Source of the DNA: an uncultured Candidatus Saccharibacteria bacterium
GTDB lineage: Bacteria > Patescibacteriota > Doudnabacteria > UBA920 > O2-02-FULL-48-8
Assembly (NCBI GenBank): GCA_964405805.1
Contig: CAYOPE010000001.1
Span: forward strand, 4,898-68,897
DNA length: 64,000 nucleotides
Direction of reading: 5' to 3'
The notes under the pieces are model-generated. The model saw only the letters and a program-made list of their open reading frames with translations, was not told where the DNA came from and ran no database searches. Each line of letters begins with the position of its first letter. Position 1 is the stretch's first letter. Made by a program: the position numbers and the translations under genes. Positions 38,897 to 52,909 of this stretch are shown one piece after another.

Positions 38897-38998
38897 ACCC
38901 CCACACCAAAGGGGAATGAATATTTGAAATATGTTTAAAAATAAAAAAATTAATATGCTCCCACGAATAAAGTTAGAGCATTTGGTGTGGGGGTAAAC

Positions 38999-40246
38999 AT
39001 GGCGCGCGAACAAATATTTGTGGGCCTCGATATCGGATCATCCATGATCCGAGTGGTGGTCGGAAAGCAAGAATCAGAGCTAGGCACACCTAGTATTATT
39101 GGCGTTGGCGAAGCCACCTCTGCTGGCATTCGTAGAGGCGTGATTGTCGACATTGACGAAGCCGTATCCTCGATCTCAGAAGCGCTAGAAAAAGCCGAAC
39201 GCATGACTGGACTGACTATCGACCATGCTGTGGTCTCTGTCGGAGGTGCGCAAATCACGTCCCAGGAAAGCCACGGCGTGATTGCTGTGGCTCGGGCTGA
39301 TGGGGAGATTACCGAAAACGATGTTGTGAGAGTCGTCGACGCTTCGCAAGCCATTTCCATTCCAGCAAATAGAGAAATTCTCCATGTCATCCCGAAAAAT
39401 TTCACAGTGGATGGTCAGACTGGAATCAAAGATCCAGTGGGCATGTCAGGAATTCGCCTGGAAGTCGACAGCCAGATCATTCAGGCCTCAGTGCCATTTA
39501 TAAAAAACCTGACCAAGTGCATCATGCAGGCAGGACTTGAGATTGATGACTTGGTTTTATCACCTCTTGCCGCTGCTCAAGCAGTTTTGAGTAAAAAGCA
39601 AAAAGAATTAGGCGTGGGATTAGTTGATCTCGGCGGCGGGACCACTGGTCTGATCGTTTTTGAAGAAGGCGATCTGGTTTCTTCCACGATTTTGCCAGTA
39701 GGCAGCATGCATATCACGAATGATTTAGCTATCGGCCTTCGCACTTCTGTGGATGCTGCGGAAAAAATCAAGCTCCAGTACGGCCAGGCCGAGATGCGGG
39801 AAGTGAAAAAAGATTTGGATGTGGATTTGGCCAAAATCGACAGGCAAGAAGAAGGAAAGGTGTCAGTTAAGCACATCGCTGAGATCATTGAGGCGCGTTT
39901 GGAAGAGACTTTTGAGCTTGTAAATAAAGAATTGAAGAAAATCAACAAAGACGGCCAGCTGCCAGCTGGAATTGTCTTGACAGGTGGTGGCGCAAAACTT
40001 CCCGGTGTGGTAGAATTAGCCAAAAAGCAGTTGCGTTTACCAGTAGTCAGTGGTCTTCCGGGTTCAGTGACTACTGTCATTGACCGAGTCGATGACCCAT
40101 CGTTTGCTACAGCAGTAGGTTTGGTCCTCTGGGCCAATGAATTTTTACTCGGCAGCAGTCGCACTGTAAATAAATTTGCTCGCAAGGTCCTAGAAAACGA
40201 TACAGTGAACAATTTACGGAAATGGTTTAAGAGTTTTCTCCCATGA
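38999..40246 (+). CDS. ftsA: Cell division protein FtsA
   Basis: Actin-fold motifs [15 protein letters not shown] and [17 protein letters not shown], plus a C-terminal amphipathic tail. Confidence 0.9.
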
Positions 40247-41385
40247 AATTAAGATCCCAACAAGTGAGTCCCAAAATTCAAACTTTTGCTCGAATTAAAG
40301 TTATCGGCGTGGGCGGCTCAGGCCACAATGCCATCCATCGCATGATGGAAACCGGTATTCATGGTGTGGAATTTGTCGCTATCAACACTGATGCACAAGC
40401 GCTTCACAATTCCGAAGCTGATTATAAAATTCATATCGGAAAAACTTTGACTCGTGGTCTTGGCGCTGGTATGAATCCAGACATTGGTCGTGCTGCAGCA
40501 GAAGAATCCAAAGATGAGATCCTAGATGTCATTCGGAACGCTGACATGGTCTTTATCACTTGTGGTCTTGGTGGTGGTACTGGTACTGGCGCTGCTCCAG
40601 TCGTGGCCGAGCTTGCGAAGAAGACTGGCATTCTGACCGTAGGTGTAGTCACCAGGCCATTTGCTTTTGAGGGTCTGAAGCGAAAAGAGATTGCTGAGAA
40701 GGGCCTAGATCAGCTCAAGCAGCATGTCGATACCATAATCGTCATTCCGAATGATCGAATTTTACAAATTATTGATAAAAAAACTTCGCTTCTTGATGCT
40801 TTCCGTACTGTGGATGATGTTCTGCACCAAGGTGTGGCTGGAATTTCGGATTTGATCACTACACCTGGCATGATCAATGTTGACTTTGCTGATGTGAAGG
40901 CAGTCATGCAGAATGCAGGCTCAGCACTTATGGGCATTGGCCGCGGCACTGGCGAAAATCGAGCCATGGATGCAGCCAGAGCAGCAATTGATTCGCCATT
41001 ACTCGAACTTTCTATTGACGGGGCACGTGGAGTCCTCTTTAACATCACTAGCGGCAAGGATTTGAGCATGTATGAGGTGGAAGAAGCCGCGAAATTTATT
41101 ACCAAATCAGTGGATCCAGATGCAAAAATTATTTTTGGCGCAGTTATCGACGATGAGATGGACGAAGAAGTGAAGATTACTGTGGTCGCCACAGGTTTTT
41201 CCGCCGGAGGCGGATCCGCCTATGGCGGAGATGATACATATAAACGACGGGAAGAACCCATGAAGACTGAAGTGAAGAAGCCGGTGTTTGCACCGAAAGT
41301 CATTGAAGAAGAACCAGAGCATCACGACACTTCAGATCAAGACGAACTCGAGATCCCAGCGTTTATACGAAAGAAGATTAAATAG
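40243..41385 (+). CDS. ftsZ: Cell division protein FtsZ
   Basis: Tubulin signature [14 protein letters not shown]-terminal conserved peptide [12 protein letters not shown]. Confidence 0.97.
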
Positions 41386-41469
41386 TCACGTATCACGTAA
41401 CAAAACCACGTTCAGGCGTGGTTTTTTGATTTTCGACTTTATGCTATGCTACGGCTAACATAAACACTC

Positions 41470-42135
41470 ATGGCCAAACAAAAACCAGGCCAGAGGAGGA
41501 AAATGAAGACTTATAGCAACGTCGTTCTTGTCGATCACCCAGTGGCGCATGATGCGCTACGGATTCTGCGCGACAAGAACACCGAGCCTGCTGCTTTTCG
41601 AGCAGCAGCGATGCGCATCAGCCTGATCCTGGCTGCAGAGGCTCTCCGGGAGGCTCCGACTGAAGAGAGAGTCGTGCAAACCCCGCTGGCGGAAGCAGCT
41701 GCTCAGAGCCTCAAAGACATCGTGGTCGTGCCAGTGTTGCGCGCAGGTCTCGGCATGCTCGACGCCGTCTTGCAGCTGGCGCCAAACGCCCACGTCGGTC
41801 ACATCGGATTGCAGCGAGACGAAGTGACGGCCGTGGCGTCGCAGTACTACCTGAAACTACCGCCAAATCTCGAGAGCTCTCTCGTTCTGCTGGTTGACCC
41901 CATGCTCGCCACCGGCGGCAGCGCTGTGGCAGCAGTTGATCTTCTGAAACTCGCAGGAGCCACGAACATCAGGATGATCTGCATCGTGGCGGCTCCTGAG
42001 GGCATCGCACTCATGACCGAGAAGCATTCGGATGTCACGATCTATACGCCTGCAGTGGACAGTCATCTGAACGACCAAAAGTACATCGTGCCGGGTCTCG
42101 GTGACTTCGGCGACCGACTCTACGGCACATTCTAG
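41470..42135 (+). CDS. upp: Uracil phosphoribosyltransferase (GC-rich island)
   Basis: PVLRAGLGM and VLLVDPMLATGGSAVAAVDLLK PRPP-binding motif, C-terminal YIVPGLGDFGDRLYGT. ~60% GC. Confidence 0.88.
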   Translation: MAKQKPGQRRKMKTYSNVVLVDHPVAHDALRILRDKNTEPAAFRAAAMRISLILAAEALREAPTEERVVQTPLAEAAAQSLKDIVVVPVLRAGLGMLDAVLQLAPNAHVGHIGLQRDEVTAVASQYYLKLPPNLESSLVLLVDPMLATGGSAVAAVDLLKLAGATNIRMICIVAAPEGIALMTEKHSDVTIYTPAVDSHLNDQKYIVPGLGDFGDRLYGTF

Positions 42136-42322
42136 AACTAAAAGCACAAGGGCCGATCAATAGTGGTCGGCTCGAGGAAGTGTGGTTCACAGCAGCCACG
42201 CTTTTCTTTTTGCTTTTTTTCTATTTTATAATTATAGTAACCGCAACGGAAACCTGTCTGCCGACAGGCAGGCGAAAGTTTTCAGGGTGCTATCAGCACC
42301 TTTACAGAAAGGTTGGAGGAAG

Positions 42323-43822
42323 ATGGACAAGCTTAACGCGGTCGAAGTTGGTCAGCATATGGCAAATATTGGCGTCATGGGTGATGCCTGCGGCGGAGTT
42401 CAGATCGACATCGCCGTGGCCTATCGTCAGACGCCGGAAGGACTGGTCGAAGGAACGACATGCGACCATGACTGCACGAACAACGAAGGCTGTGGCAATT
42501 ACGACTGCCCGGCTCACTACAGCGCTCCTGGAAACAGAGGTTTGAAAATCACGAGCATGGCGCCGGCTGATGTCATGCTGGACCGGATCACCAACGCTGT
42601 CTGGGGAGTACGCCGGGCCGTGGAGCGGTTTCTGGAAGTTGATTACCACGGCTTCTGTTACACGTCTGAGATTCGTGACGAAGTCGTGAAAGGTGTGATC
42701 GAGAGCCGGCTGCGCATGGGCAAGGTCATCGTGAATGTCTTTGGCGGCGAGCCGCTTCTCTACCCGCACTTCCTTCAGCTCGAAGGGGCGCTGATGGACC
42801 GCGGTTACACGTTGAACGTCACGACCACGGGGGACAAATGGCTCGATCCGAAGTTCGCCAAGGCCATGGAAGACATCGAGCCCACTGTGCTGGCATTGAG
42901 CCTGGATGATCTGACGATTCCGGAACTCCGGCGCCTCTCGAAGCTCACGCCCGAGCAGATCAAGCAGGAATGGAAAGCTCTCAGGGCGAAAAACCCCAAG
43001 CATGGGCAGGCGCTCAAAGCCCTCGAAGCCGTTTACGTCTTCGCGTACTACAAGGAACGTGGCGGCTATCCCAAGGGCAAGAAGCTCCTGGCCAACGCGG
43101 TGGTCCACAAAGGCAACCTGTCTCACATTCGCGACATGTTCGAGGTCGTGGCTGAAGTCGCTCCGGGGATCGTGTTCAATCCGTACGCAGGTCAGGCTGC
43201 GTTCGACCACGATGAAACAACCGGCCTGCGGCGTCGTGGAGAATTCGGCGCCGACGAAGTCCAGCAGTTCTCGGATTTCGTGGACTGGTCGATTTCGGAA
43301 AGCAAGCGGCCGGATGGTGTGATCGTCAAACGTTTGCCGCACTGGCTCCTGCATCGGGCAGCACTCGATGTTCACGAAGGTAAGACACGGGAGCAGTCCG
43401 ACGCCATCGCTGGGTGGAACTCCTGGCGCTGTCACAATCACGTGGGCGCGGGATTCTTCATGCAAGTCGGTCGATCACCGAAAGTGCGGATACCGAATCA
43501 GCCGCAGGTGATTTCGATTCAGGGCCTGCACGGAAAGACCGGCAGTAACGGCCAAGTCTATCCGGGCGGGCATCTGGGGTGCTTCTGGGATCCGACGACC
43601 GTAACCCAGGACGGACAGTACCACGACCAGATGGAGGTCATGGATTACCTGCACTACGGCATGAAATCTCTCGCGCAGAAGTCTGCTGATCCCTGTCCCG
43701 GATGCCGAATGCCGCGGCTTGACTCACTCCATCTCGTGATCCTCGAGGCAGGGATTCCGACTGACGATCCGACGCTGAAGAACCGGTATCTGAATCTGCG
43801 TCGAGAGCACGCCGGGTTCTAA
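42323..43822 (+). CDS. Hypothetical Cys-rich protein, possibly a divergent radical-SAM-type enzyme
   Basis: ATG after GGAGG. N-terminal cluster CDHDC-x5-C-x4-C, then VNVFGGEPLL (radical-SAM-like glycine motif) and LNVTTTGD ~22 aa later. C-terminal cysteines CPGC. The Cys spacing is not the canonical CX3CX2C. Confidence 0.45.
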   Translation: MDKLNAVEVGQHMANIGVMGDACGGVQIDIAVAYRQTPEGLVEGTTCDHDCTNNEGCGNYDCPAHYSAPGNRGLKITSMAPADVMLDRITNAVWGVRRAVERFLEVDYHGFCYTSEIRDEVVKGVIESRLRMGKVIVNVFGGEPLLYPHFLQLEGALMDRGYTLNVTTTGDKWLDPKFAKAMEDIEPTVLALSLDDLTIPELRRLSKLTPEQIKQEWKALRAKNPKHGQALKALEAVYVFAYYKERGGYPKGKKLLANAVVHKGNLSHIRDMFEVVAEVAPGIVFNPYAGQAAFDHDETTGLRRRGEFGADEVQQFSDFVDWSISESKRPDGVIVKRLPHWLLHRAALDVHEGKTREQSDAIAGWNSWRCHNHVGAGFFMQVGRSPKVRIPNQPQVISIQGLHGKTGSNGQVYPGGHLGCFWDPTTVTQDGQYHDQMEVMDYLHYGMKSLAQKSADPCPGCRMPRLDSLHLVILEAGIPTDDPTLKNRYLNLRREHAGF

Positions 43823-43852
43823 ACGTAAATGGAGGACGGATGAAGAGACTGG

Positions 43853-43890
43853 CGGGTGCGCGTAGCGATTACGCGCCCCGCCTTTTTTCA
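43853..43890 (+). terminator. GC-rich rho-independent terminator
   Basis: ggcgggtgcgcgtagcgattacgcgccccgcc-tttttt. Confidence 0.7.
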
Positions 43891-43958
43891 TTTGCTAGTT
43901 TTTGTTTGTGGACGCTATAATGCATAAGTCAACCGAGACTCCGAGTTGGAGTTCTCAC

Positions 43959-44456
43959 ATCAACGGAGGTTTGCCTATGTGTCCCGAAAGTCTCGCGCAT
44001 CTCGCACGAGGAACGGCCGAGGTCGGTGATCAAGTCGTCGCCAAGGACTTCAAGCACCAGGGCAGCAGTCACACGTTCACGATGTACGCGCGCACGGACA
44101 ACCCGACGTGTCCGGTCTGTCTGCCGAACGGCGCCACGATCTGCTTCAAGGATCCGTCGAGGCGGGTTCGCCGGCTCGCGGAAGTCACAGACGGTCCGGT
44201 CGTGGCCACACTCGCCAACGGCGCGTTCTACGAGAGCACGTTCGCATTCGCGAACGGCGCGACGGCCACGCTGTCGGAGATCCGCGGTGCGGTCTTCAAC
44301 GTCATTCCCGCCATCGCCACGAGCGACGAGATCAACGAGGAGGCGCGGCGCATCTTCACTGAACTCAGCCCGGAACTCGATCCGGTGCTCGCTCAGGCCG
44401 CGGCGACGGCACGCATCGCCCGAACCCAGTCGCGCGGCCAGACGGTCGCGGCGTAG
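43959..44456 (+). CDS. Hypothetical protein (GC-rich island)
   Basis: ATG 8 nt after GGAGG. The alternative frame 44026-44820 is Arg/Ser low-complexity and judged spurious. Confidence 0.5.
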   Translation: MNGGLPMCPESLAHLARGTAEVGDQVVAKDFKHQGSSHTFTMYARTDNPTCPVCLPNGATICFKDPSRRVRRLAEVTDGPVVATLANGAFYESTFAFANGATATLSEIRGAVFNVIPAIATSDEINEEARRIFTELSPELDPVLAQAAATARIARTQSRGQTVAA

Positions 44457-44620
44457 CACGTCGCGTTCGACGCCGACACAACCAAGCGACGCAGGAAGCG
44501 TCGGGGCGGTTCACCACCAGGTGATCCGCTCTTTTCATTTGTCAGAAAATGCATGCGTTTGGTATCCTATAGTATCAAGCGCAGGGCTTGGTAATGTTTT
44601 CAGTCTGAAACGGAGGAGAG

Positions 44621-46102
44621 ATGATCCCAAGATATACGAATTCTCGGATCCAGGCTATCTGGTCGGATCAGAACAAGACCAGGCTCTGGGATTGCAGCGA
44701 ACTCGCTGCGGTCCAGGCTTCGGAAGAGCTTGGCGAATTTCCTGCCGGCGTGTATCAGAAGATTGCCGCATCGCTCGCAGCACATCCTGTGGATCTCGAG
44801 TGGTGGCTTGCGAAAGATAAAGAAATCCATCACGACCTCAATGCCTACCTCGAAGAGCGGCTGCGGTTCATCGTCAAGAACCTACAGATCTACTTTCATC
44901 GCTACATGACCTCGTTCGACACGGAGGAGCCGGCGTTCGGCCGAATGCTTCGTGACTCAGTCGACGTGGTACTCGAAATGTGTGCTGAACTCGATCTGAT
45001 TCTGGCTTCGCTGGCGCGCAGATACCAGTACACGGTCATGATCGGACGCAGTCATCAGCAAGGCGGCGATCTGCAGACTTTCGGCAAAAGGGTCTGCACG
45101 TGGCTACGAGATCTTCGTACTGCCGCCCAGATTCTGGGCGATGTATCGGTCGATCTCAAGTACTCGAAGATGTCAGGGGCCATGGGTAACTATGGTCTGT
45201 TCAAACCAGAAGTCGAGCGCCGAGCACTCGCGATTCTCGGCTTCGAGCCGTACGTCGGTGCCACACAGATTATGCCGCGGGTGCTTTACGTGCCAGTGGC
45301 TGCTGCGCTTTCGGGTTTGGTCTCGACTATTTCGAAAATCGGCAATGACATCCGCCTCGGCGCGCGCAGTCCGAAGCCCATCTGCCAGGAACCGTTCAAG
45401 AAAAAACAGAAGGGTTCGTCGGCCATGCCGCACAAGAAGAATCCGATTCGCTGCGAACAGCTGGAAGGCATGGCCAGGGTTGCCCGTGGCTTCCTATCGA
45501 TGAACGCCGAAAACGTGCAGACTGACGAGGAGCGCGCCATCGAACAGTCCTCAGTGGAACGAATCGCATGGCCGGACCTGTTTCATGTCACTTGTCAGGC
45601 TCTGGATGTGCTGACCCAGGTCACGTCCGGGTTGAAAGTCTATCCCGATAACATGCTCTGGGAACTCGTCCAATCGCGTGGTTGCTACGCGGCGTCACAG
45701 GCCAAAGAAGTCCTAAAGACCATGGGCGAGGAGCTGTGGAATGACGCTGAGGAGCCGTACCGAATAGTCCAACTGGCTGCGTTCAACGTCTTTGAACCCA
45801 GCCAGAAAGCAAAGCGCATGCGCGAATTCCCGGAAACCTCGTTTGCTTTCGCCGAAAATTTCCTGATGGCGCCACACTCGTTCGAAACCGAGTGTGTCAC
45901 CATCCAGGAGGTGATCGTGCGCGGGCGGCTGCGGGTATCTGATGAGCTCGACGCGGACGAAGCAGTGGTGCAGCGCTGGAATCGCATTCTGGATTCGATT
46001 TTCGCGGACGAACGGAATCGCGACCAGTGGACGGAAATTTTTCGTCCAGCAGTACTTCTGGCTCACGAGTCCGCGATCTTCGCAGCGCTCTTGGGCGAGT
46101 AG
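44621..46102 (+). CDS. purB: Adenylosuccinate lyase (fumarate lyase family)
   Basis: N-terminus MIPRYTNSRIQAIWSDQNK... and the fumarate-lyase signature GSSAMPHKKNP. Confidence 0.85.
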   Translation: MIPRYTNSRIQAIWSDQNKTRLWDCSELAAVQASEELGEFPAGVYQKIAASLAAHPVDLEWWLAKDKEIHHDLNAYLEERLRFIVKNLQIYFHRYMTSFDTEEPAFGRMLRDSVDVVLEMCAELDLILASLARRYQYTVMIGRSHQQGGDLQTFGKRVCTWLRDLRTAAQILGDVSVDLKYSKMSGAMGNYGLFKPEVERRALAILGFEPYVGATQIMPRVLYVPVAAALSGLVSTISKIGNDIRLGARSPKPICQEPFKKKQKGSSAMPHKKNPIRCEQLEGMARVARGFLSMNAENVQTDEERAIEQSSVERIAWPDLFHVTCQALDVLTQVTSGLKVYPDNMLWELVQSRGCYAASQAKEVLKTMGEELWNDAEEPYRIVQLAAFNVFEPSQKAKRMREFPETSFAFAENFLMAPHSFETECVTIQEVIVRGRLRVSDELDADEAVVQRWNRILDSIFADERNRDQWTEIFRPAVLLAHESAIFAALLGE

Positions 46103-46201
46103 AATTCGGGTTTTGAGTTCGGGCGGGTTGCGCTTGCAGCCCGCCCTTTTTCTATAGTATGATGTCCTATCTAGTTCCCTTCGTTCTGAGAGGAGGATTG
46201 T

Positions 46202-46798
46202 GTGACCGAAGCTGTGATCTTTGACTGCTGCGAAGTACTCTTAACCGGAGTTAAGGGTTGCTACGAGCAGTTCGGAAAACTGCTCGGAACCGATCCTGCG
46301 ACTGTGAAGTCTCGCCTCATGTGCGACATGGCTATGCGTCTGTTTTCCGGCCAGGCCACAGAAGAGGAGTATTGGACTGATGTCATCCGGCGTTCAGGCT
46401 GGACTCACGATAGTAAAGTCTTGGGCAAGCAGCTGCGCCGAAGCTTTCGAGAGATCCCAGGTACACGCAATCTCATCCGAGCCATGCGACGACAGGGATA
46501 CAAAACCGGTCTGCTTTCAGTGCACGCCCGCGAGTGGGTCGAGTACTGTCAGAGGCGCTTTCGTCATCACTGTCTGTTTGATGTGGTGCACTACTCGTAC
46601 CAGTTCCAACCGTCCAAACCGCATCCAGAATCGTTTGTGAATCTGGCTGCGGCACTGGGCGTCAGTATCACCAACTGCGTGGTCGTGGATGACCGCGCTG
46701 AAAATATCATTGCGGCCAGGACCCTGGGTGCCCAAGGGGTGATTTTCGAAACTGCTGAGCAGACAGAAGCAGAACTGTTTTCCCTGCTCAGACTCTAA
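46202..46798 (+). CDS. HAD-superfamily hydrolase-like protein
   Basis: GTG after GAGGAGG. AVIFDCCEVLL (motif I-like, second Asp replaced) and VVVDDRAENI (motif IV). Confidence 0.55.
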   Translation: MTEAVIFDCCEVLLTGVKGCYEQFGKLLGTDPATVKSRLMCDMAMRLFSGQATEEEYWTDVIRRSGWTHDSKVLGKQLRRSFREIPGTRNLIRAMRRQGYKTGLLSVHAREWVEYCQRRFRHHCLFDVVHYSYQFQPSKPHPESFVNLAAALGVSITNCVVVDDRAENIIAARTLGAQGVIFETAEQTEAELFSLLRL

Positions 46799-46815
46799 CT
46801 GACGAGGAGTGTGAC

Positions 46816-48114
46816 ATGACGACTAAGTTTGTTCGAGGCGAGAAGGTGGCCGAAGGCAAGACCAAGGTGATTTACGCAGACGAGAACGACCCGACCGGCG
46901 CCATCGTCTTTTCCAAGGACGATCTGACAGCCGGCGACGGCAAGCGGCACGAGGTCTTCGATGGCTTCGGCGCACTGTCGAATCTGACGACGATCAACAC
47001 ATTCAGCCTGCTCCGCGCCTGCGGCATCCCGGTGGCGTTTCGCGAGAAGATCGATGACAGGACGCTCTCAGCGGATCTGACAGACATGATTCCGCTCGAA
47101 GTGGTGACGCGTCGCGAGGCGCACGGCTCGTTCCTCAAGCGCCATCCGTACCTGAAGCGCGACCACTACTTCCCGCGCCTCGTCTTCGAGCTGTTCCTGA
47201 AGACATCGGGAAAGAAGTGGAAGGAACACAATCTGCTCTGCGACGATCCTTACATGGACTACACGTCGCGACAGGAGCAGGGTTTGGTCGGGTTGTTCTT
47301 GCCCGATCAGCCCCTCTGGTCGCAGCCTTCACCTATGCATGTGGTGAACAGTTCTGAGATCGAAGGGTTTGAGCGCCTGCAGGAGATCGAGGAGATCACC
47401 AGAAAGGTCACCCTCGTCCTGGACAAGGCGCTGCAGATGGTCGGGATCAGGTTCGCGGACATGAAGATCGAGTTCGGAATCACGAAAGATGGCCGACTCG
47501 TGGTCTCAGACGTGATCGACAGTTCGTCGTGGCGGATCGTGGGACCGGACGGGAAGTACATCGACAAACAGCTGTTTCGAGACGGAGCCGAGGTTCCAGT
47601 CATGGCGCAGGTTTTCGCCCGAGGGCTCGAGATCACAAGCCGGTTTCAGGTGCCACCGAAGCAGCAGATCGTCATCTGGACCGGCTCACCGAAGGACGAG
47701 GTCTCGAAGTTCAAAGAGTGGTTGGAGAGTCATCCTCTGCCAATCCAAGTCGTGTATGTGGCCCTGTCCGCGCACAAGCAGCCTGTCCTGGCCGTTCAGA
47801 AGCTCCAGCAGCTCGTGCAGATGACGCCGGACACAGTGGTGGTGGCGTTCATCGGCCGATCCAACGGCGCCGGCCCCACGCTCTCCGGTGCAGTCAGTGT
47901 GCCTGTCCTGACTGTGCCGGCGGACTTCCAGAAAATGCCGGAAGATGTCTGGTCGAGTTTGCGCACACCGAGTGACGTGCCAGTCTCGACCATGCTGGAA
48001 CCCGGGAATGCCCTGCTTCAGGCGGTCCAGATCTTGGCGATGCGCAATCCGCAGCTATATATGGAGCTGCGTCATCGACAGGAAGATCGCCTGAGCAACT
48101 TCGCGCTGCTGTAG
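46816..48114 (+). CDS. purC: Bifunctional PurC-PurE fusion (SAICAR synthetase N-terminal, AIR carboxylase/PurE-like C-terminal)
   Basis: N-terminal ...GEKVAEGKTKVIYADENDP...VFSKDDLTAGDG... is PurC-like. The C-terminal 150 aa (LSAHKQP, GRSNGAGPTLSG, VPVLTVP, NALLQAVQILA) parallel PurE motifs (SAHRTP, AGGAAHLPG, VPVIGVP). Confidence 0.7.
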   Translation: MTTKFVRGEKVAEGKTKVIYADENDPTGAIVFSKDDLTAGDGKRHEVFDGFGALSNLTTINTFSLLRACGIPVAFREKIDDRTLSADLTDMIPLEVVTRREAHGSFLKRHPYLKRDHYFPRLVFELFLKTSGKKWKEHNLLCDDPYMDYTSRQEQGLVGLFLPDQPLWSQPSPMHVVNSSEIEGFERLQEIEEITRKVTLVLDKALQMVGIRFADMKIEFGITKDGRLVVSDVIDSSSWRIVGPDGKYIDKQLFRDGAEVPVMAQVFARGLEITSRFQVPPKQQIVIWTGSPKDEVSKFKEWLESHPLPIQVVYVALSAHKQPVLAVQKLQQLVQMTPDTVVVAFIGRSNGAGPTLSGAVSVPVLTVPADFQKMPEDVWSSLRTPSDVPVSTMLEPGNALLQAVQILAMRNPQLYMELRHRQEDRLSNFALL

Positions 48115-48204
48115 AGCAGTTCGACGACGGGCGCGCGAAAGTCACGGGCGGGGGCGATTGTTTATCAGGTTCTTCTGAACCTGACAAGCTTCGCTCCCGA
48201 TTTT

Positions 48205-49365
48205 TTATTTTGTTTCTACGAGATCCCACACATATTTCGCGGCGTTGATGGGTTTGCCGATGAGGGGATCGTGGTGAAGCTGGATGAATGGCGCGCCATT
48301 GCACTCAATGATCCCGCATTTTTGCTCTTTGTAAGATTTAGTGATGTCAGGAATGATAAAATCAAAGCCGAGAATTGATACATCCAGAAGCTGGCCAGCT
48401 TTCGCCAGCATCTCTTTCGTCTCTGGATGTGTCTCATCAGTGCAGTCATAAGAAGTGCCGCCATAATTGACGCCAATTTTTTCAGAAAGTGCCACAGTCT
48501 GATCTTTGGCCAAAATTAAATCCATACCGAGACTATTGCGCTGCATGAAATACGGATTGACTTTTATCTCTTTTACTTTGTCCGGTCTCTGGGCATCTTT
48601 GATTTTGATGAGTTCTGCGATAGTGTGAATGCCATCACCAGTGACCTGAGGCGAGGAGCCGCCTAGGACTCCGACTAGTTTGCCTCCGATCACAGTACCA
48701 CGCTGCACATCGCCATAGAGATGTTCTTCGATGATAACCCAGTGGCAGACTTGCTTGGAAATTTTAAAAGCTTTTTCCAAATCGTCTTTGGTGTAGACCA
48801 TGGTCGTGGTGTGTCGGCCGCGGGAGCCAGCACGCGGCTTGACGATAAGAGGCTTTTCGAGGGCATCAAATGTTTTGAGGGCTTGAGATACTCTAGTAAA
48901 TGACCCACCAGCAGCCACAGGGAAGTGATATTCGAGTAATTTTTTCTTCAGAAGATATTTATCATCAATCCAAGTTAGGTTTGAGGTAGCGACTTTTTCT
49001 GATCTTGGCAGATTCATAAAATAATGCCAGCGGTTTTGGAGCTTTACTCGATACAGATCTATGGATTTGCCAAATGGCTTGAGTTCCTCGATCTGAAGTC
49101 CTCTGGCGAGCGCTTCTTCCCATAGGACACGCGCACGATCATAAGGAATATTTTTTATATCGCGATTGATTTGAATGAGTCCGAGTGGTTTCAGAACATG
49201 AAAAACAGAAATGCCGATCCATTCGCCAAGTTTGTCCATGATTTGGCCCAACCGACTCTGGACCAAGGTCCGCCTGATCGGGCTAAACAGAATATCTATG
49301 GATTCATAGAATTTGTGAGTCCTGTGCGGTATGGGGTTATTCCCACAGTAAAGGCAGGTTTGCAT
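48205..49365 (-). CDS. ATP-grasp domain protein (cyanophycin-synthetase-N-terminal-like / amino-acid ligase)
   Basis: ATP-grasp core (...KPRAGSRGRH..., GGTSYDCTDETHPE...ILGFDFIIPDITKS). Start placed at MQTCLYCGN because the upstream 78 nt of the longer ORF translate a palindromic repeat. Confidence 0.65.
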   Translation of the reverse strand: MQTCLYCGNNPIPHRTHKFYESIDILFSPIRRTLVQSRLGQIMDKLGEWIGISVFHVLKPLGLIQINRDIKNIPYDRARVLWEEALARGLQIEELKPFGKSIDLYRVKLQNRWHYFMNLPRSEKVATSNLTWIDDKYLLKKKLLEYHFPVAAGGSFTRVSQALKTFDALEKPLIVKPRAGSRGRHTTTMVYTKDDLEKAFKISKQVCHWVIIEEHLYGDVQRGTVIGGKLVGVLGGSSPQVTGDGIHTIAELIKIKDAQRPDKVKEIKVNPYFMQRNSLGMDLILAKDQTVALSEKIGVNYGGTSYDCTDETHPETKEMLAKAGQLLDVSILGFDFIIPDITKSYKEQKCGIIECNGAPFIQLHHDPLIGKPINAAKYVWDLVETK

Positions 49366-49402
49366 GAGTGAATTATACCCCTCACCCGGCGCTTCGCGCC
49401 AC

Positions 49403-49426
49403 CCTCTCCCGGAAGCGGGAGAGGGA
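49403..49426. repeat. Perfect hairpin ccctctccc-ggaa-gcgggagaggg (CTCC/GGAG hairpin family)
   Basis: Same family as 11668-11708, 55227-55248, 55631-55649 and others. Confidence 0.6.
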
Positions 49427-49566
49427 AAATCTGAATTTGACAAACTAAATTCTCAGAAGACACTTTTGTTGATAAGTTTTTCTAGATGTAGAGCGGTAAA
49501 GCAAAATCTATCGAAAAAGTGGGTTTTGACAGGTTTCTATATATAGCGATATATTAACTATGGTTA

Positions 49567-49582
49567 ACACAAGATATTGTGT
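49567..49582. promoter_or_regulatory. NrdR box
   Basis: ACACAAGATATTGTGT is a perfect 16-bp palindrome matching the NrdR-box consensus acaCwAtATaTwGtgt, ~130 nt upstream of nrdR. A degenerate partner (tatatagcgatatat) lies ~30 bp upstream. Confidence 0.6.
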
Positions 49583-49710
49583 TTCCGAAGGCTTAAGGCT
49601 TAGCCTGAGACAAAAAATCAAACAAAAAAGCTTAAGATTGGTTCATTTTACATAGTATCGAGAGGCTTGATGAAGCGTTTTCGCCTATTTTTTTTCGTTC
49701 TCAAAAATCC

Positions 49711-50154
49711 ATGCGTTGCCCTAATTGTTCGAATGAAGACACAAAAGTTTTAGACTCTCGCCCCATCTCTGATGGGATGGCTATTCGGAGGCGCCGGGAA
49801 TGTACGAAATGTGGGGCTAGGTTCTCCACTCACGAGGAAATGGAACTGCTGGATCTGACTGTGGTCAAGCGTGATGGCAGCACCCAGGCCTATATGAGAG
49901 AGAAAATCGAGAATGGGATCAGAAAAGCTTTTGAGAAAAGGCCTCTGAGCCACGATGATTTCCATGCTTTGATCGTCGGCATCGAGCAGGACATCCAGAA
50001 AACCGGAAAAAGTCAGGTCGCGACCAAAGAAATCGGCAACATCGTCATGAAGCGCATAAAAAGTCGGGATCAAGTCGCTTACATCCGGTTTGCAAGTGTG
50101 TATCGCAAGTTTGCAGACGTAGAAGAGTTTGTCAGAGAAGCAAAAAAACTATAA
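49711..50154 (+). CDS. nrdR: Transcriptional repressor NrdR
   Basis: Zn ribbon MRCPNCSNEDTKVLDSR...CTKCGARF followed by an ATP-cone. Confidence 0.9.
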   Translation: MRCPNCSNEDTKVLDSRPISDGMAIRRRRECTKCGARFSTHEEMELLDLTVVKRDGSTQAYMREKIENGIRKAFEKRPLSHDDFHALIVGIEQDIQKTGKSQVATKEIGNIVMKRIKSRDQVAYIRFASVYRKFADVEEFVREAKKL

Positions 50155-50156
50155 TC

Positions 50157-50225
50157 TACGAAATTACGAAATAGTACGAAAATACGAAATGTTCGTACTT
50201 TCGTAGAAAATTCGTACTTCGTAGA
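50157..50225. repeat. TACGAAA inverted-repeat element, copy 2
   Basis: gtacgaaaatacgaaatgttcgtactttcgtagaaaattcgtacttcgtaga, between nrdR and nrdJ; compare 15318-15395. Confidence 0.7.
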
Positions 50226-50254
50226 TAGTAACAAGAATTAACTAAGAACAAACC

Positions 50255-52909
50255 ATGCAACCAAAAGAAAACCTACAAGAAAGAAAAGTAAATGCACTCG
50301 CTGAGCTTGGCGAAAAGATTTTCCTCGATCGCTACGCCATTAAGGACGCGAAAAAGGAAAGTCTCAGTGTAGGTGATACTGCGGTGGTATGTGTGAACCT
50401 AAAAACCGGGCAGCGTGAGATCGGGGTACTGGAAAAAATCGACAGAGAAGCACGCGAAGTAGTAGTCAAGCTTCGTGATGGCACTCTCGAAACTCGATCT
50501 ATTGATCATGTGGACAAGCCATTGGAAACTATGCCAGAACAGATGTTTGAACGCATTGCCAAACACATTGCATCAGTTGAAAACACAGATGAATTGAAAC
50601 AAGAATGGGAAGGACGATTTCGCGAGCTCATGAATGACTGGAAATACGTGCCAGCAGGAAGAATTTTTACAGGCGCAGGCACTGGCCAGAATCTGACTTT
50701 TTATAATTGTTACGTCATACCTTCCCCGCGCGATTCGCGAGGTGGAATTTTCGAGACCCTGGGCCAAATGGCGGAAATCATGTCACGCGGCGGCGGGGTA
50801 GGAATCAATGTCTCGACACTGCGTCCTCGCTACGCTTATGTGAAAGGCGTGAATGGCCGTTCTTCTGGCTCTGTGTCCTGGGCATCACTTTATTCATTTG
50901 TCACTGGGCTCATTGAGCAGGGCGGATCCAGACGCGGAGCGCTGATGTTGATTTTAAACGTCTGGCATCCTGATGTCGTGGATTTTATCAATTCGAAAAA
51001 AGAAGCCGGCAAGATTACGAATGCGAATATTTCTGTAGGAATCACAGATGATTTCATGACTGCGGTGAAGAATGACCAGCCGTGGGATCTAGTTTTTCCA
51101 GACACTTCAGATCCGATGTACCGCGATCGCTGGGATGGAAACATCGGTCGCTGGAAGGAAATTGGTGGTAAAGTCATCAAGCACAAGACGGTTCGTGCCA
51201 AAGACATTTGGGAAAATATTATTTCCTCTGCATGGTCTTCTGCTGAGCCTGGCATGTATTTTATTGATCGAGCGAATTACTACTCCAATTCTCACTATTT
51301 CGCAGATCTGCCATGCACGAATCCTTGTGGCGAGCAGCCGCTGCCTGCCTGGGGCGTGTGTAACCTCGGTCACATCAACCTTGCCAAGCACGTGGATTAC
51401 AGTAAAAAAGATGTGGACTGGAATAAATTAAAGAGAACTGTGCAGGATGCAGTCAGATTTCAGGACAATGTCATTGATGCGACACCTTATTTCTTTGATG
51501 AAAATTATCAGCAGCAAATGAGTGAGCGCAGAGTTGGCATGGGCACGATTGGTCTTGCTGAAATGCTGATTCATTTGGGACTCCGTTATGGTTCTCCTCA
51601 AGGAGTTGAGTTTATCGATAAACTTTACCAGTTTATTTCTATCACAGCCTACGAAACTTCAGTTGATCTCGCTCGTGAAAAGGGTGCGTTTAGTAAATTC
51701 GAAGTTGATAAGTTTTTGCAATCAGGCTTCATGCAGCGAATGCCAGAATACATTCGCCATCTCGTGCGCCAATACGGAATTCGAAACGTAACTATTTTGA
51801 CACAAGCACCGACTGGGACTGTGGGAACAATGGTAGGAACATCCACAGGCATCGAGCCGTTCTTCTCTTGGACATATTTCAGAAAATCTCGACTCGGTGT
51901 GCATCAGGAGCACATCAAACTTGCCAAAGACTGGCTGGATGCGCATCCAGGCGAATCTCTGCCTGACTATTACGTCACAGCTATGGAACTGACTCCAGAA
52001 GAGCACGTGCGTGTGCAGGCTGCTGTGCAGCGCTGGACTGATAGCGCTATCTCAAAAACTGTAAATGCGCCAGAAAACTATACTGTGGAGCAAACTGCGA
52101 AACTCTATGAGTTGCTGTATGATTTGGGAGCTAAAGGCGGGACGATTTACAGAGATGGCTCACGTGATGAACAGATCTTGGCTGTAGATCATAAAAAATT
52201 GGGCAAAGATGCGGCTGAACAAGTGGAGAATGGTAAAGCTGTGATCAAACAGGAACAGCCTGTTCAACCAATACCAACTCCTGAACCTGCCCCAGCACCT
52301 CAAATGCCACCGCAGCCTCAGATGAACTCAATCCAACCCCGCAAGCGACCAGATGTCATGCAAGGATCGACTTATAAAGTCGCGACAGCTTATGGTAATC
52401 TTTATGTCACGGTCAATGAAGACGAGTATGGACCATTTGAAGTTTTCTCGCAGCTTGGCAAGGCTGGTGGCTTCTTCGGCGCTCAGACTGAAGCGATTTG
52501 TCGCATGATTTCTCTGGCACTGCGCTCAGGAATTAGTTTGCCTACAGTTGTCGAGCAGCTCAAAGGCATCCGCGGTCCGGATCCCATGTTCCACAATGGT
52601 GAGCGCATTTTGTCGCTCCCAGATGCGATTGCAAATGTCCTAGAAAATCACATTAAGCGCGGACAGAAAGAACTCCAGCTGGATTTTTCAAAGATAGAAA
52701 AGTCTTCCTTCGCTAAAGCTTCGGAGGACAAGCAACCCGTCTTTCAAGCAGTAACCAAAGAAGTTCATTCTACCGGTTCCGCGTTTGTCACCACACAGAA
52801 GGCAGTTGCTGACTTTGGCGATGCGCCAGTGTGTATGGTTTGTAGCAACATGCTTCGCATGGCAGAAGGTTGCATGAAATGTGAGTACTGCGGGTGGAGT
52901 AAATGCTGA
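50255..52909 (+). CDS. nrdJ: Class II (adenosylcobalamin-dependent) ribonucleotide reductase
   Basis: Active-site NPCGEQPLPAWGVCNLGHINL and a C-terminal Cys-rich tail CMVCSN...CMKCEYCGWSKC; 884 aa. Confidence 0.88.
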   Translation: MQPKENLQERKVNALAELGEKIFLDRYAIKDAKKESLSVGDTAVVCVNLKTGQREIGVLEKIDREAREVVVKLRDGTLETRSIDHVDKPLETMPEQMFERIAKHIASVENTDELKQEWEGRFRELMNDWKYVPAGRIFTGAGTGQNLTFYNCYVIPSPRDSRGGIFETLGQMAEIMSRGGGVGINVSTLRPRYAYVKGVNGRSSGSVSWASLYSFVTGLIEQGGSRRGALMLILNVWHPDVVDFINSKKEAGKITNANISVGITDDFMTAVKNDQPWDLVFPDTSDPMYRDRWDGNIGRWKEIGGKVIKHKTVRAKDIWENIISSAWSSAEPGMYFIDRANYYSNSHYFADLPCTNPCGEQPLPAWGVCNLGHINLAKHVDYSKKDVDWNKLKRTVQDAVRFQDNVIDATPYFFDENYQQQMSERRVGMGTIGLAEMLIHLGLRYGSPQGVEFIDKLYQFISITAYETSVDLAREKGAFSKFEVDKFLQSGFMQRMPEYIRHLVRQYGIRNVTILTQAPTGTVGTMVGTSTGIEPFFSWTYFRKSRLGVHQEHIKLAKDWLDAHPGESLPDYYVTAMELTPEEHVRVQAAVQRWTDSAISKTVNAPENYTVEQTAKLYELLYDLGAKGGTIYRDGSRDEQILAVDHKKLGKDAAEQVENGKAVIKQEQPVQPIPTPEPAPAPQMPPQPQMNSIQPRKRPDVMQGSTYKVATAYGNLYVTVNEDEYGPFEVFSQLGKAGGFFGAQTEAICRMISLALRSGISLPTVVEQLKGIRGPDPMFHNGERILSLPDAIANVLENHIKRGQKELQLDFSKIEKSSFAKASEDKQPVFQAVTKEVHSTGSAFVTTQKAVADFGDAPVCMVCSNMLRMAEGCMKCEYCGWSKC

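Follow-up and report, generated by a model that had tools for sequence, protein, structure and literature searches.

The window analysed here, 64,000 nucleotides of contig CAYOPE010000001.1 from an uncultured Candidatus Saccharibacteria bacterium, contains a gene for a divergent radical-SAM protein, here called rSAM. It lies between upp, which encodes uracil phosphoribosyltransferase (UPRTase), and an intrinsic terminator (Table 1). The open reading frame is the one described in the first-pass annotation, and its product is 499 residues long. That annotation also had the gene standing alone between its two neighbours; the boundaries are correct, but "alone" is misleading, since upp is the conserved partner of this family (see below). 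A longer reading frame starting at GTG 42182 was rejected because homologue N termini align with ATG 42323, and a 387-aa antisense ORF (42302-43465) was rejected as well; both are by-products of the high GC content.

Table 1. Features of the upp-rSAM locus, in window coordinates
Feature	Position	Strand	Basis or remarks
upp, uracil phosphoribosyltransferase gene	41470..42135	+	Pfam UPRTase 3.7e-69; NCBIfam upp equivalogs passed
Two hairpins and T-run 3' of upp, terminator-like	42150..42215	+	Terminator scan, RNA fold
TATAGT, -10-like box (conserved block ATAGTAA)	42233..42238	+	Intergenic alignment
5'-UTR hairpin GGTGCTATCAGCACC, then TTTACA	42286..42306	+	Conserved among relatives' loci
Ribosome-binding site GGAGG	42315..42319	+	Direct sequence reading; 4 nt 5' of ATG
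CDS, 499-aa divergent radical-SAM protein	42323..43822	+	ATG 42323; stop codon ends 43822
Predicted expanded cluster-binding loop C47-x3-C51-x10-C62 (Y60 at -2)	42461..42508	+	Conservation, P0120 alignment
GGE, G141-G142-E143, end of barrel strand 2	42743..42751	+	Aligns with GGEP of MoaA, viperin, SuiB
TTTG, end of strand 3, TTNG/TNG counterpart	42821..42832	+	T167 99%, T169 91%, G170 96%
S193-L-D195, end of strand 4, ribose motif position	42899..42907	+	S193 97%, D195 92%
Family-specific C-terminal domain, residues 331-499, with C370, C420, C458, C461	43313..43819	+	Predicted auxiliary metal/Fe-S site
Intrinsic terminator, GC-rich stem 43851-43882, then T6	43851..43888	+	RNA fold

The upp-to-rSAM gap in the clade of the query protein is 53 to 187 bp, and in the window it contains several conserved elements. 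The terminator scan matched the structure 3' of upp at 42176-42205, with a T tail, and the fold of 42136-42325 gave a z score of -4.6; the T-run is conserved also in three related loci (L001, L005, and L006). When the window and these same loci are aligned over the intergenic region, an ATAGTAA block shows no variation, and L010 has it too; in the query clade, TATAGT is probably part of a putative promoter belonging to rSAM itself. Further downstream, about 20 nt 5' of the ribosome-binding site, lies a hairpin with the layout GGTGCT-loop-GCACC, followed by TTTACA, which occurs once in the window versus 0.11 occurrences expected by chance. The rSAM genes of L001 and L010 carry it directly 5' of their start codons, and that of L005 in a variant form. 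An Rfam scan of the 5' UTR gave no match, and the hairpin is a possible candidate for a regulatory element. The terminator 3' of rSAM folds with a dG of -37.5 kcal/mol (z score of -4.99), and none of 200 shuffled sequences did as well. The segment from upp to purC-purE (41470-48114) is compositionally distinct, with a GC3 of 0.60 to 0.82 versus 0.41 to 0.47 in ftsA and ftsZ. L001 shows a similar contrast, its upp and rSAM genes having a higher GC content than the genes around them.

An exhaustive search of 1.84 billion cluster representatives returned 117 matches, 102 of them at ≤1e-10; most were full length (about 450 to 500 aa), with ~30 to 37% identity. It was this search that uncovered the family, and not the word-index search, which gave three relatives at 46 to 64% identity and only 4 proteins even with a 74-sequence profile. 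Among the weakest matches of the exhaustive search was P0120, a 336-aa protein encoded on metagenome contig Ga0315281_10305482, which as a query of the word-index search recovered one fragment only. Two members occur in species-representative genomes, one in a Saccharibacteria MAG and one in a Patescibacteria MAG, and NCBI gives the member P0010 (MDO8483017.1) the generic annotation "radical SAM protein." Our literature searches, which covered CX3CXnC radical-SAM motifs, links between radical-SAM proteins and UPRTase, and Saccharibacteria radical-SAM enzymes, found no description of the family.

Conservation was assessed in an alignment of 74 full-length members with a mean column identity of 27%. 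Every member (100%) retains the three N-terminal cysteines C47, C51, and C62, and conservation of Y60 reaches 98%. Residues F140-G141-G142, T167, T169, G170, S193, D195, N265, and N286 are conserved at 91 to 99%, V260 and P287 at 86%, and four C-terminal cysteines (C370, C420, C458, and C461) at 92 to 97%. K232, N258, W422, and R465 are invariant, and R337 and R493 are near-invariant. Two further cysteines, C23 (7%) and C57 (1%), are rarely shared. Judged from this alignment, the conservation of the motifs is far beyond chance.

The N-terminal cysteines had been described previously as a noncanonical cluster, CDHDC-x5-C-x4-C. In the query this stretch reads C47-DHD-C51-x5-C57-x4-C62. The conservation of C47, C51, and C62 in all 74 homologues upholds most of that description, but C57 is not a ligand, leaving a three-Cys motif, CX3CX10C. 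Members have 5 to 26 residues separating C51 from C62 (10 in the query), most commonly 8, and two members have CX4CX5C. The canonical CX3CX2C spacing was found neither in the query nor in the family (CX3CX5-26C), with the sole exception of P0120, so that the spacing series runs from n = 2 (P0120) through 5, 7, and 8 up to 26. P0120 can be aligned to the entire family profile (hhalign probability of 100%, E value of 3e-57, profile columns 23 to 438), and its CDHDCSYCPSA lies on the family CDHNCT...GGYxCPAA, matching on both sides of the gap. This alignment identifies C47, C51, and C62 as motif cysteines 1, 2, and 3. As read from the aligned sequences, the odd Cys motif is the canonical CX3CX2C with an insertion between the second and third cysteines, and C47, C51, and C62 are the predicted ligands of a SAM-cleaving [4Fe-4S] cluster. 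Known motif variants include ThiC (CX2CX4C), HmdB (CX5CX2C), QueE (CX14CX2C), and PhnJ (CX2CX21CX5C) (PMC4389238); an insertion after the second cysteine and before the third is absent from all four but is just what the rSAM family has. Our literature searches found no report of such an insertion in a radical-SAM motif.

An AlphaFold2 model built with the 74-member alignment (pLDDT of 94.1, pTM of 0.93) begins its core with strand E40-45, directly followed by the Cys loop (residues 46 to 81) and then by five more strand-helix units. Five strands carry motifs at their C-terminal ends: FGGEP (strand 134-140), TTTG (163-167), SLD (189-193), N258...N265 (254-261), and NPY (284-289). The rSAM protein has a (β/α)6 partial TIM barrel, as expected of a radical-SAM core. 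Profile searches of PDB sequences with the 74-member alignment retrieved SuiB, viperin, PqqE, and BlsE. In the fold comparison, BlsE ranked first with a score of 18.7 (284 residues aligned), followed by SuiB (16.3), MoaA (15.5), PqqE (15.0), GDGT-MAS (14.1), SkfB (13.8), viperin (13.8), and anSME (13.7). Foldseek returned the same set of folds (BlsE at 2.6e-5), so that the similarity to TIM-barrel radical-SAM folds for which the first-pass annotation had proposed a search is present.

The strand-end motifs support the same assignment. All of the motifs quoted previously are present in the translation, and GGE follows C62 by 79 residues, close to the ~80 aa claimed. Across the family the motifs FGG(E/N)P, TTTG, SxD, N258-x-V-x-H-x-G-N265, and N286-P-Y are 86 to 100% conserved. 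In an hhalign comparison using an E. coli MoaA sequence that was entered by hand, GGEP, TTNG, and SVD of MoaA (strands 2 to 4) fell on the family FGGEP, TTTG, and SLD; these three motifs also align with viperin and SuiB, SLD falling on SCD of viperin. While G141 and G142 are 95 to 96% conserved, position 143 is Asn in 46 of the 74 members and Glu in 9. The GGEP of the query is therefore the minority and more canonical form. Agreement from sequence profiles is weak: the query scored 29.3 bits against the Pfam Radical_SAM profile (PF04055), versus a gathering cut-off of 29.5; the match covers profile positions 30 to 139 only, leaving the N-terminal Cys part of the profile unmatched. The profile is matched by 46 of the 74 members at an E value of ≤0.01, and P0120 passes the gathering score with 34.1 bits over positions 4 to 117, Cys motif included. 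NCBIfam equivalogs gave scores all below 25 bits and far below their cut-offs: MoaA, 12.6 versus 284; TYW1, 12.8 versus 318; QueE, 15.9 versus 300; and PqqE, 13.8 versus 381. We assign the rSAM protein to the radical-SAM superfamily and, on the equivalog scores, to none of its named families. With the fold, the strand motifs, and the conserved Cys triad all in agreement, the original suggestion of a possible divergent radical-SAM enzyme is supported.

Next to the barrel, the protein has a C-terminal domain of ~170 residues with the Cys pattern C-x49-C-x37-CxxC, the last pair being C458-P-G-C461 (43694-43705). In the model, C370 is followed by a strand (379-383), a low-confidence insert, a second strand (417-419), C420, a helix (436-453), and C458-x2-C461. 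Twitch domains have their ligands in the order of one Cys before a hairpin, one Cys after it, and two Cys after a helix (PMC6231123), and the order in the model is the same. The SPASM motif has seven cysteines, CX9-15GX4C-gap-CX2CX5CX3C-gap-C (PMC6231123); the family has only four conserved C-terminal cysteines. Neither PF13186 nor TIGR04085 matched, and scans of Pfam and NCBIfam with the query and the 74 members gave no SPASM or twitch match. Modelled and fold-searched alone, the C-terminal domain matched no solved fold. The earlier proposal that the C-terminal cysteines could bind an auxiliary cluster is thus plausible, given the 92 to 97% conservation of the four positions, although these searches detected no homology to SPASM or twitch domains. 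C370, C420, C458, and C461 could instead form a Zn or structural site. With no detectable structural relative, the four-Cys domain may represent a new type of auxiliary-cluster domain.

Metagenome contigs were searched with a back-translated pattern (G-C-x-W ... C-x-G-C-x-M-P), and the matches were confirmed by HMM, yielding 44 family ORFs in 35 to 36 nonredundant loci. Clustering of the neighbouring genes revealed one dominant partner, a directly adjacent UPRTase homologue. By a phmmer check, a UPRTase gene was directly adjacent in 23 of 35 nonredundant loci (about two thirds). Fourteen loci extend far enough on either side of the rSAM gene to show both neighbours; 11 of these have the adjacent UPRTase gene, and L007, L008, and L063 do not. 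The UPRTase gene is nearly always on the same strand as the rSAM gene, gaps are often -11 to +23 bp, and the stop and start codons of the pair often overlap. A distance tree places upp 5' of the rSAM gene in two clades, that of the query among them, and 3' of it in a third, with no more than 29 to 43% identity between the clades. Even P0120, the most divergent member, has a UPRTase gene directly downstream, with an 8-bp overlap (locus L117). The partner UPRTases pass the NCBIfam upp equivalog cut-offs (for the window Upp, 240 bits versus 208 with TIGR01091), and Upp converts uracil and PRPP to UMP. Because upp is adjacent in both gene orders, in divergent clades, and even in P0120, upp and the rSAM gene form a two-gene module that is conserved across the family beyond inherited gene order.

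No second recurrent neighbour, transporter, or reductant gene was found among the family loci. Neighbours that did not recur include genes for a PfkB kinase (L008), HinT (L011), Tag (L045), PurD (L056), and GuaA and RdgB (L050), as well as RmuC, NYN, and HAD genes; part of this naming was done by reading N-terminal sequences. Small ORFs lie 3' of the rSAM gene in several loci. Those of the window, L001, L005, and L006 showed no evident mutual similarity when their translations were read side by side.

We considered four other explanations, each of which fits the data less well than a working radical-SAM enzyme of the kind discussed below. The first is a SPASM/twitch-type maturase that modifies peptides or proteins, whose target would be a small peptide encoded nearby or Upp itself. 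Several of the top fold matches (SuiB, PqqE, SkfB, anSME, and CteB) are maturases of RiPPs or proteins, the best NCBIfam matches are SPASM maturases, at only 10 to 23 bits, and the downstream small ORFs might supply a substrate. However, in neither the query nor the 74 members was a SPASM (PF13186) or RRE-type domain detected, the small ORFs show no evident similarity on side-by-side reading and form no recurrent cluster, the sole recurrent neighbour is a housekeeping-type Upp, and the best fold match, BlsE, is a small-molecule enzyme. We regard a maturase as unlikely. The second is a radical-SAM enzyme that modifies RNA, with uridine or some other tRNA or rRNA base as a possible target; the proximity of upp would then be incidental. 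The matches that could point this way reflect generic barrel similarity (13 to 17% identity), with TYW1 far below its cut-off; no RNA-binding domain was found, and nothing in this reading would account for the adjacency to upp, which holds in both gene orders and extends to P0120. This explanation too seems improbable.

As a third alternative, the protein could descend from radical-SAM enzymes but have lost SAM cleavage, its barrel put to another use in a pseudo-enzyme or in an Fe-S/Zn protein with a structural or redox role. The expanded cluster loop, the Asn that replaces the GGE glutamate in 46 of 74 members, and the borderline Pfam score are all consistent with such a loss. Set against them is the 86 to 100% conservation of the three cysteines and of all SAM-contacting strand ends (GG, TTTG, SxD, N258/N265, and N286-P287) despite ~27% overall identity, and active enzymes such as QueE (CX14CX2C) tolerate long loop insertions (PMC4389238); a loss of SAM chemistry is very unlikely. 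A prokaryotic viperin (pVip)-like antiviral enzyme, which would convert UTP or CTP to a 3'-deoxy-3',4'-didehydro nucleotide with Upp supplying the precursor, is also very unlikely, given a score of 18 bits versus 180 for NF038283, a PADLOC pVip match of 21 bits confined to strands 2 to 4, a 499-aa query ~200 residues longer than viperins (about 300 aa) with a four-Cys C-terminal domain that viperins lack, no occurrence of the family pattern in the viral contigs searched, and no consistent proximity to other defence genes.

The reading that we prefer, and hold to be likely, is that rSAM is a member of the radical-SAM superfamily that acts on a small molecule, probably related to uracil, in a module with upp. 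Several observations count against it: the GGE glutamate is Asn in most members, P0120 has FG-TPE at this position, the query falls 0.2 bits below the Pfam gathering score with the N-terminal Cys part of the profile unmatched, the C-terminal domain matches neither SPASM/twitch profiles nor a solved fold, L007, L008, and L063 have no adjacent upp, and no further recurrent neighbour points to a substrate. From the fold, motif homology, conservation, and gene linkage, we infer Fe-S binding, SAM cleavage, an auxiliary cluster, and a substrate class as follows. C47, C51, and C62 would hold the [4Fe-4S] cluster, and SAM would be bound by its fourth iron and by the FGG(E/N)P, TTTG, and SxD strand ends. 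Once reductively cleaved, SAM would give rise to a 5'-deoxyadenosyl radical, which would take a hydrogen atom from the substrate. The C370/C420/C458/C461 site would hold a probable auxiliary Fe-S cluster serving electron transfer or substrate positioning.

The substrate is most likely a uracil-related nucleobase, nucleoside, or nucleotide. This is suggested by the pairing with upp, by the closest fold neighbours (BlsE, MoaA, viperin, and DesII), which act on nucleosides or nucleotides, and by the invariant basic residues K232 and R465 together with the near-invariant R337 and R493. The enzyme might act on a modified or reduced pyrimidine and so provide uracil, or one of its nucleotides, for salvage; alternatively, it might modify the UMP produced by Upp. 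A more specific and tentative proposal, which we think possible but doubtful, is that rSAM and Upp constitute an unrecognised radical-SAM route of pyrimidine salvage in small-genome, Patescibacteria-like bacteria, with a CX3CXnC loop and a four-Cys domain that would both be unprecedented. In such a route, the enzyme would take up a pyrimidine scavenged from the environment or a host, whether modified, reduced, or C-linked, and turn it into uracil or a uracil nucleotide, and Upp would carry the product to UMP. Candidate substrates would be dihydrouracil or dihydrouridine, pseudouridine or its phosphate, and thymine or other 5-substituted uracils.

Saccharibacteria and other Patescibacteria have been described as dependent on scavenged nucleotides, and the tight, ancient pairing with upp offers a testable lead to a radical reaction in pyrimidine salvage. 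Most of the interest hinges on identifying that reaction. The family also bears on how radical-SAM enzymes are recognised: searches based on the motif can miss enzymes with a Cys spacing other than CX3CX2C. It extends the set of tolerated motif variants, with the canonical motif of P0120 as an evolutionary link, and its spacing series provides a natural set for studying how the loop constrains binding of the cluster and SAM.

Among solved structures, the closest is the cytosylglucuronate decarboxylase BlsE (PDB 7VOB), to which DesII, MoaA, and viperin are related as sugar-nucleotide radical-SAM enzymes. Identity of these four proteins to the query is only 13 to 15%, and they have the canonical CX3CX2C, whereas the query does not. 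Relative to them, the query has additional helices in the segment linking strand 1 to strand 2 (about residues 100 to 132) and other inserts, and its 170-residue four-Cys C-terminal domain is unrelated. NCBIfam scores of 12 to 18 bits, versus cut-offs of 180 to 284, place it outside those sugar-nucleotide families. The SPASM/twitch proteins BtrN, SkfB, anSME, PqqE, and SuiB are also among the best whole-protein fold matches. QueE of Burkholderia multivorans (CX14CX2C) is an earlier example of how a three-Cys motif can hold a long insertion while barrel and cluster site stay canonical (PMC4389238); the QueE insertion lies between the first and second cysteines, while that of the rSAM family lies between the second and third and spans 5 to 26 residues. 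The conserved aromatic residue has moved to position -2 (Y-x-C) in the rSAM family, and the relationship with QueE is at the superfamily level only. A compact relative with the canonical motif is P0120, which is homologous over its whole length and has the same set of C-terminal cysteines, but lacks the query insertions (about residues 52 to 59, 100 to 132, 204 to 228, 331 to 345, and 384 to 410). What distinguishes the rSAM protein is a trio of features: the expanded, variable-length CX3CXnC loop, the four-Cys C-terminal domain without detectable relatives, and the pairing with upp.

The window shared extended synteny (38987-52909) with L001, the locus that carries a 46%-identical homologue of the radical-SAM (rSAM) protein. 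Both run from ftsA through ftsZ and small genes to upp, which is followed by the rSAM gene, and in both, genes for an ATP-cone protein and for a large ribonucleotide reductase were located several kilobases downstream.

Within the window, upp and the rSAM gene belonged to a compositional island whose genes had GC contents of 0.54 to 0.66 and GC3 values of 0.60 to 0.82, compared with a GC content of 0.47 for the whole window and GC3 values of 0.41 to 0.47 for the flanking ftsA and ftsZ. The GC content of upp and the rSAM gene was likewise above that of the neighboring genes in L001. This composition could reflect horizontal acquisition, or nucleotide-metabolism genes could form a distinct expression class. 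The island also encodes two divergent purine-pathway genes, a purB-like lyase with a C-terminal extension (287 bits, below the purB equivalog cutoff of 326) and a purC-purE fusion, each half of which scored far below its own cutoff (88 versus 190 bits and 63 versus 150 bits). The 159-residue orf159 had a very high GC content (0.66; GC3, 0.82), its own ribosome-binding site, and a promoter-like site at 43892-43921; it matched nothing in Pfam, NCBIfam, or PADLOC, and the equivalently placed ORFs of three homologue loci (L001, L005, and L006) had no evident similarity to it. A long antisense ORF overlapping the rSAM gene and several further long alternative-frame ORFs between 43.9 and 46 kb are, on the simplest account, by-products of high GC content rather than genes.

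The 5' UTR of the rSAM gene carries a conserved hairpin (GGTGCT-loop-GCACC, then TTTACA), which was preceded by a conserved ATAGTAA block resembling a -10 element. The hairpin occurred once in the window, had counterparts in other homologue loci, and had no match in Rfam; it may be a regulatory operator.

The most divergent homologue, P0120 (locus L117), is compact and has a canonical CDHDCSYC motif; its gene overlaps a following uracil phosphoribosyltransferase (UPRTase) gene by 8 bp. The partial gene upstream weakly matched an MGS-like domain (E = 0.009), and the searched collection held only one further protein of this type, the fragment P0122. L008 is one of the lineages in which no upp adjoins the rSAM gene. 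There, a PfkB-family sugar or nucleoside kinase gene lies 47 bp downstream on the same strand; the models that it matched best, though weakly, were those for ribokinase and nucleoside kinase. This neighbor, a single observation, is compatible with a nucleoside-related substrate for the rSAM enzyme.

Coordinates of features in the window and in homologue loci
Feature	Locus	Position	Strand	Remark
Island	Window	41470-48114		upp, rSAM gene, orf159, purB-like lyase, HAD hydrolase, purC-purE fusion
5'-UTR hairpin	Window	42286-42306		~20 nt 5' of rSAM ribosome-binding site
Hairpin counterpart	L001	9963-9977
Hairpin counterpart	L010	293-305
Hairpin counterpart	L005			Variant form
Antisense ORF	Window	42302-43465	-	387 aa
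orf159	Window	43977-44456	+	Directly 3' of terminator behind rSAM gene
purB-like lyase	Window	44621-46102	+	493 aa
purC-purE fusion	Window	46816-48114	+	432 aa
Large ribonucleotide reductase	Window	50255-52909		884 aa
Large ribonucleotide reductase	L001	15187-17829		880 aa
P0120	L117	229-1239		336 aa
UPRTase	L117	1232-1735
PfkB-family kinase	L008	11436-12272
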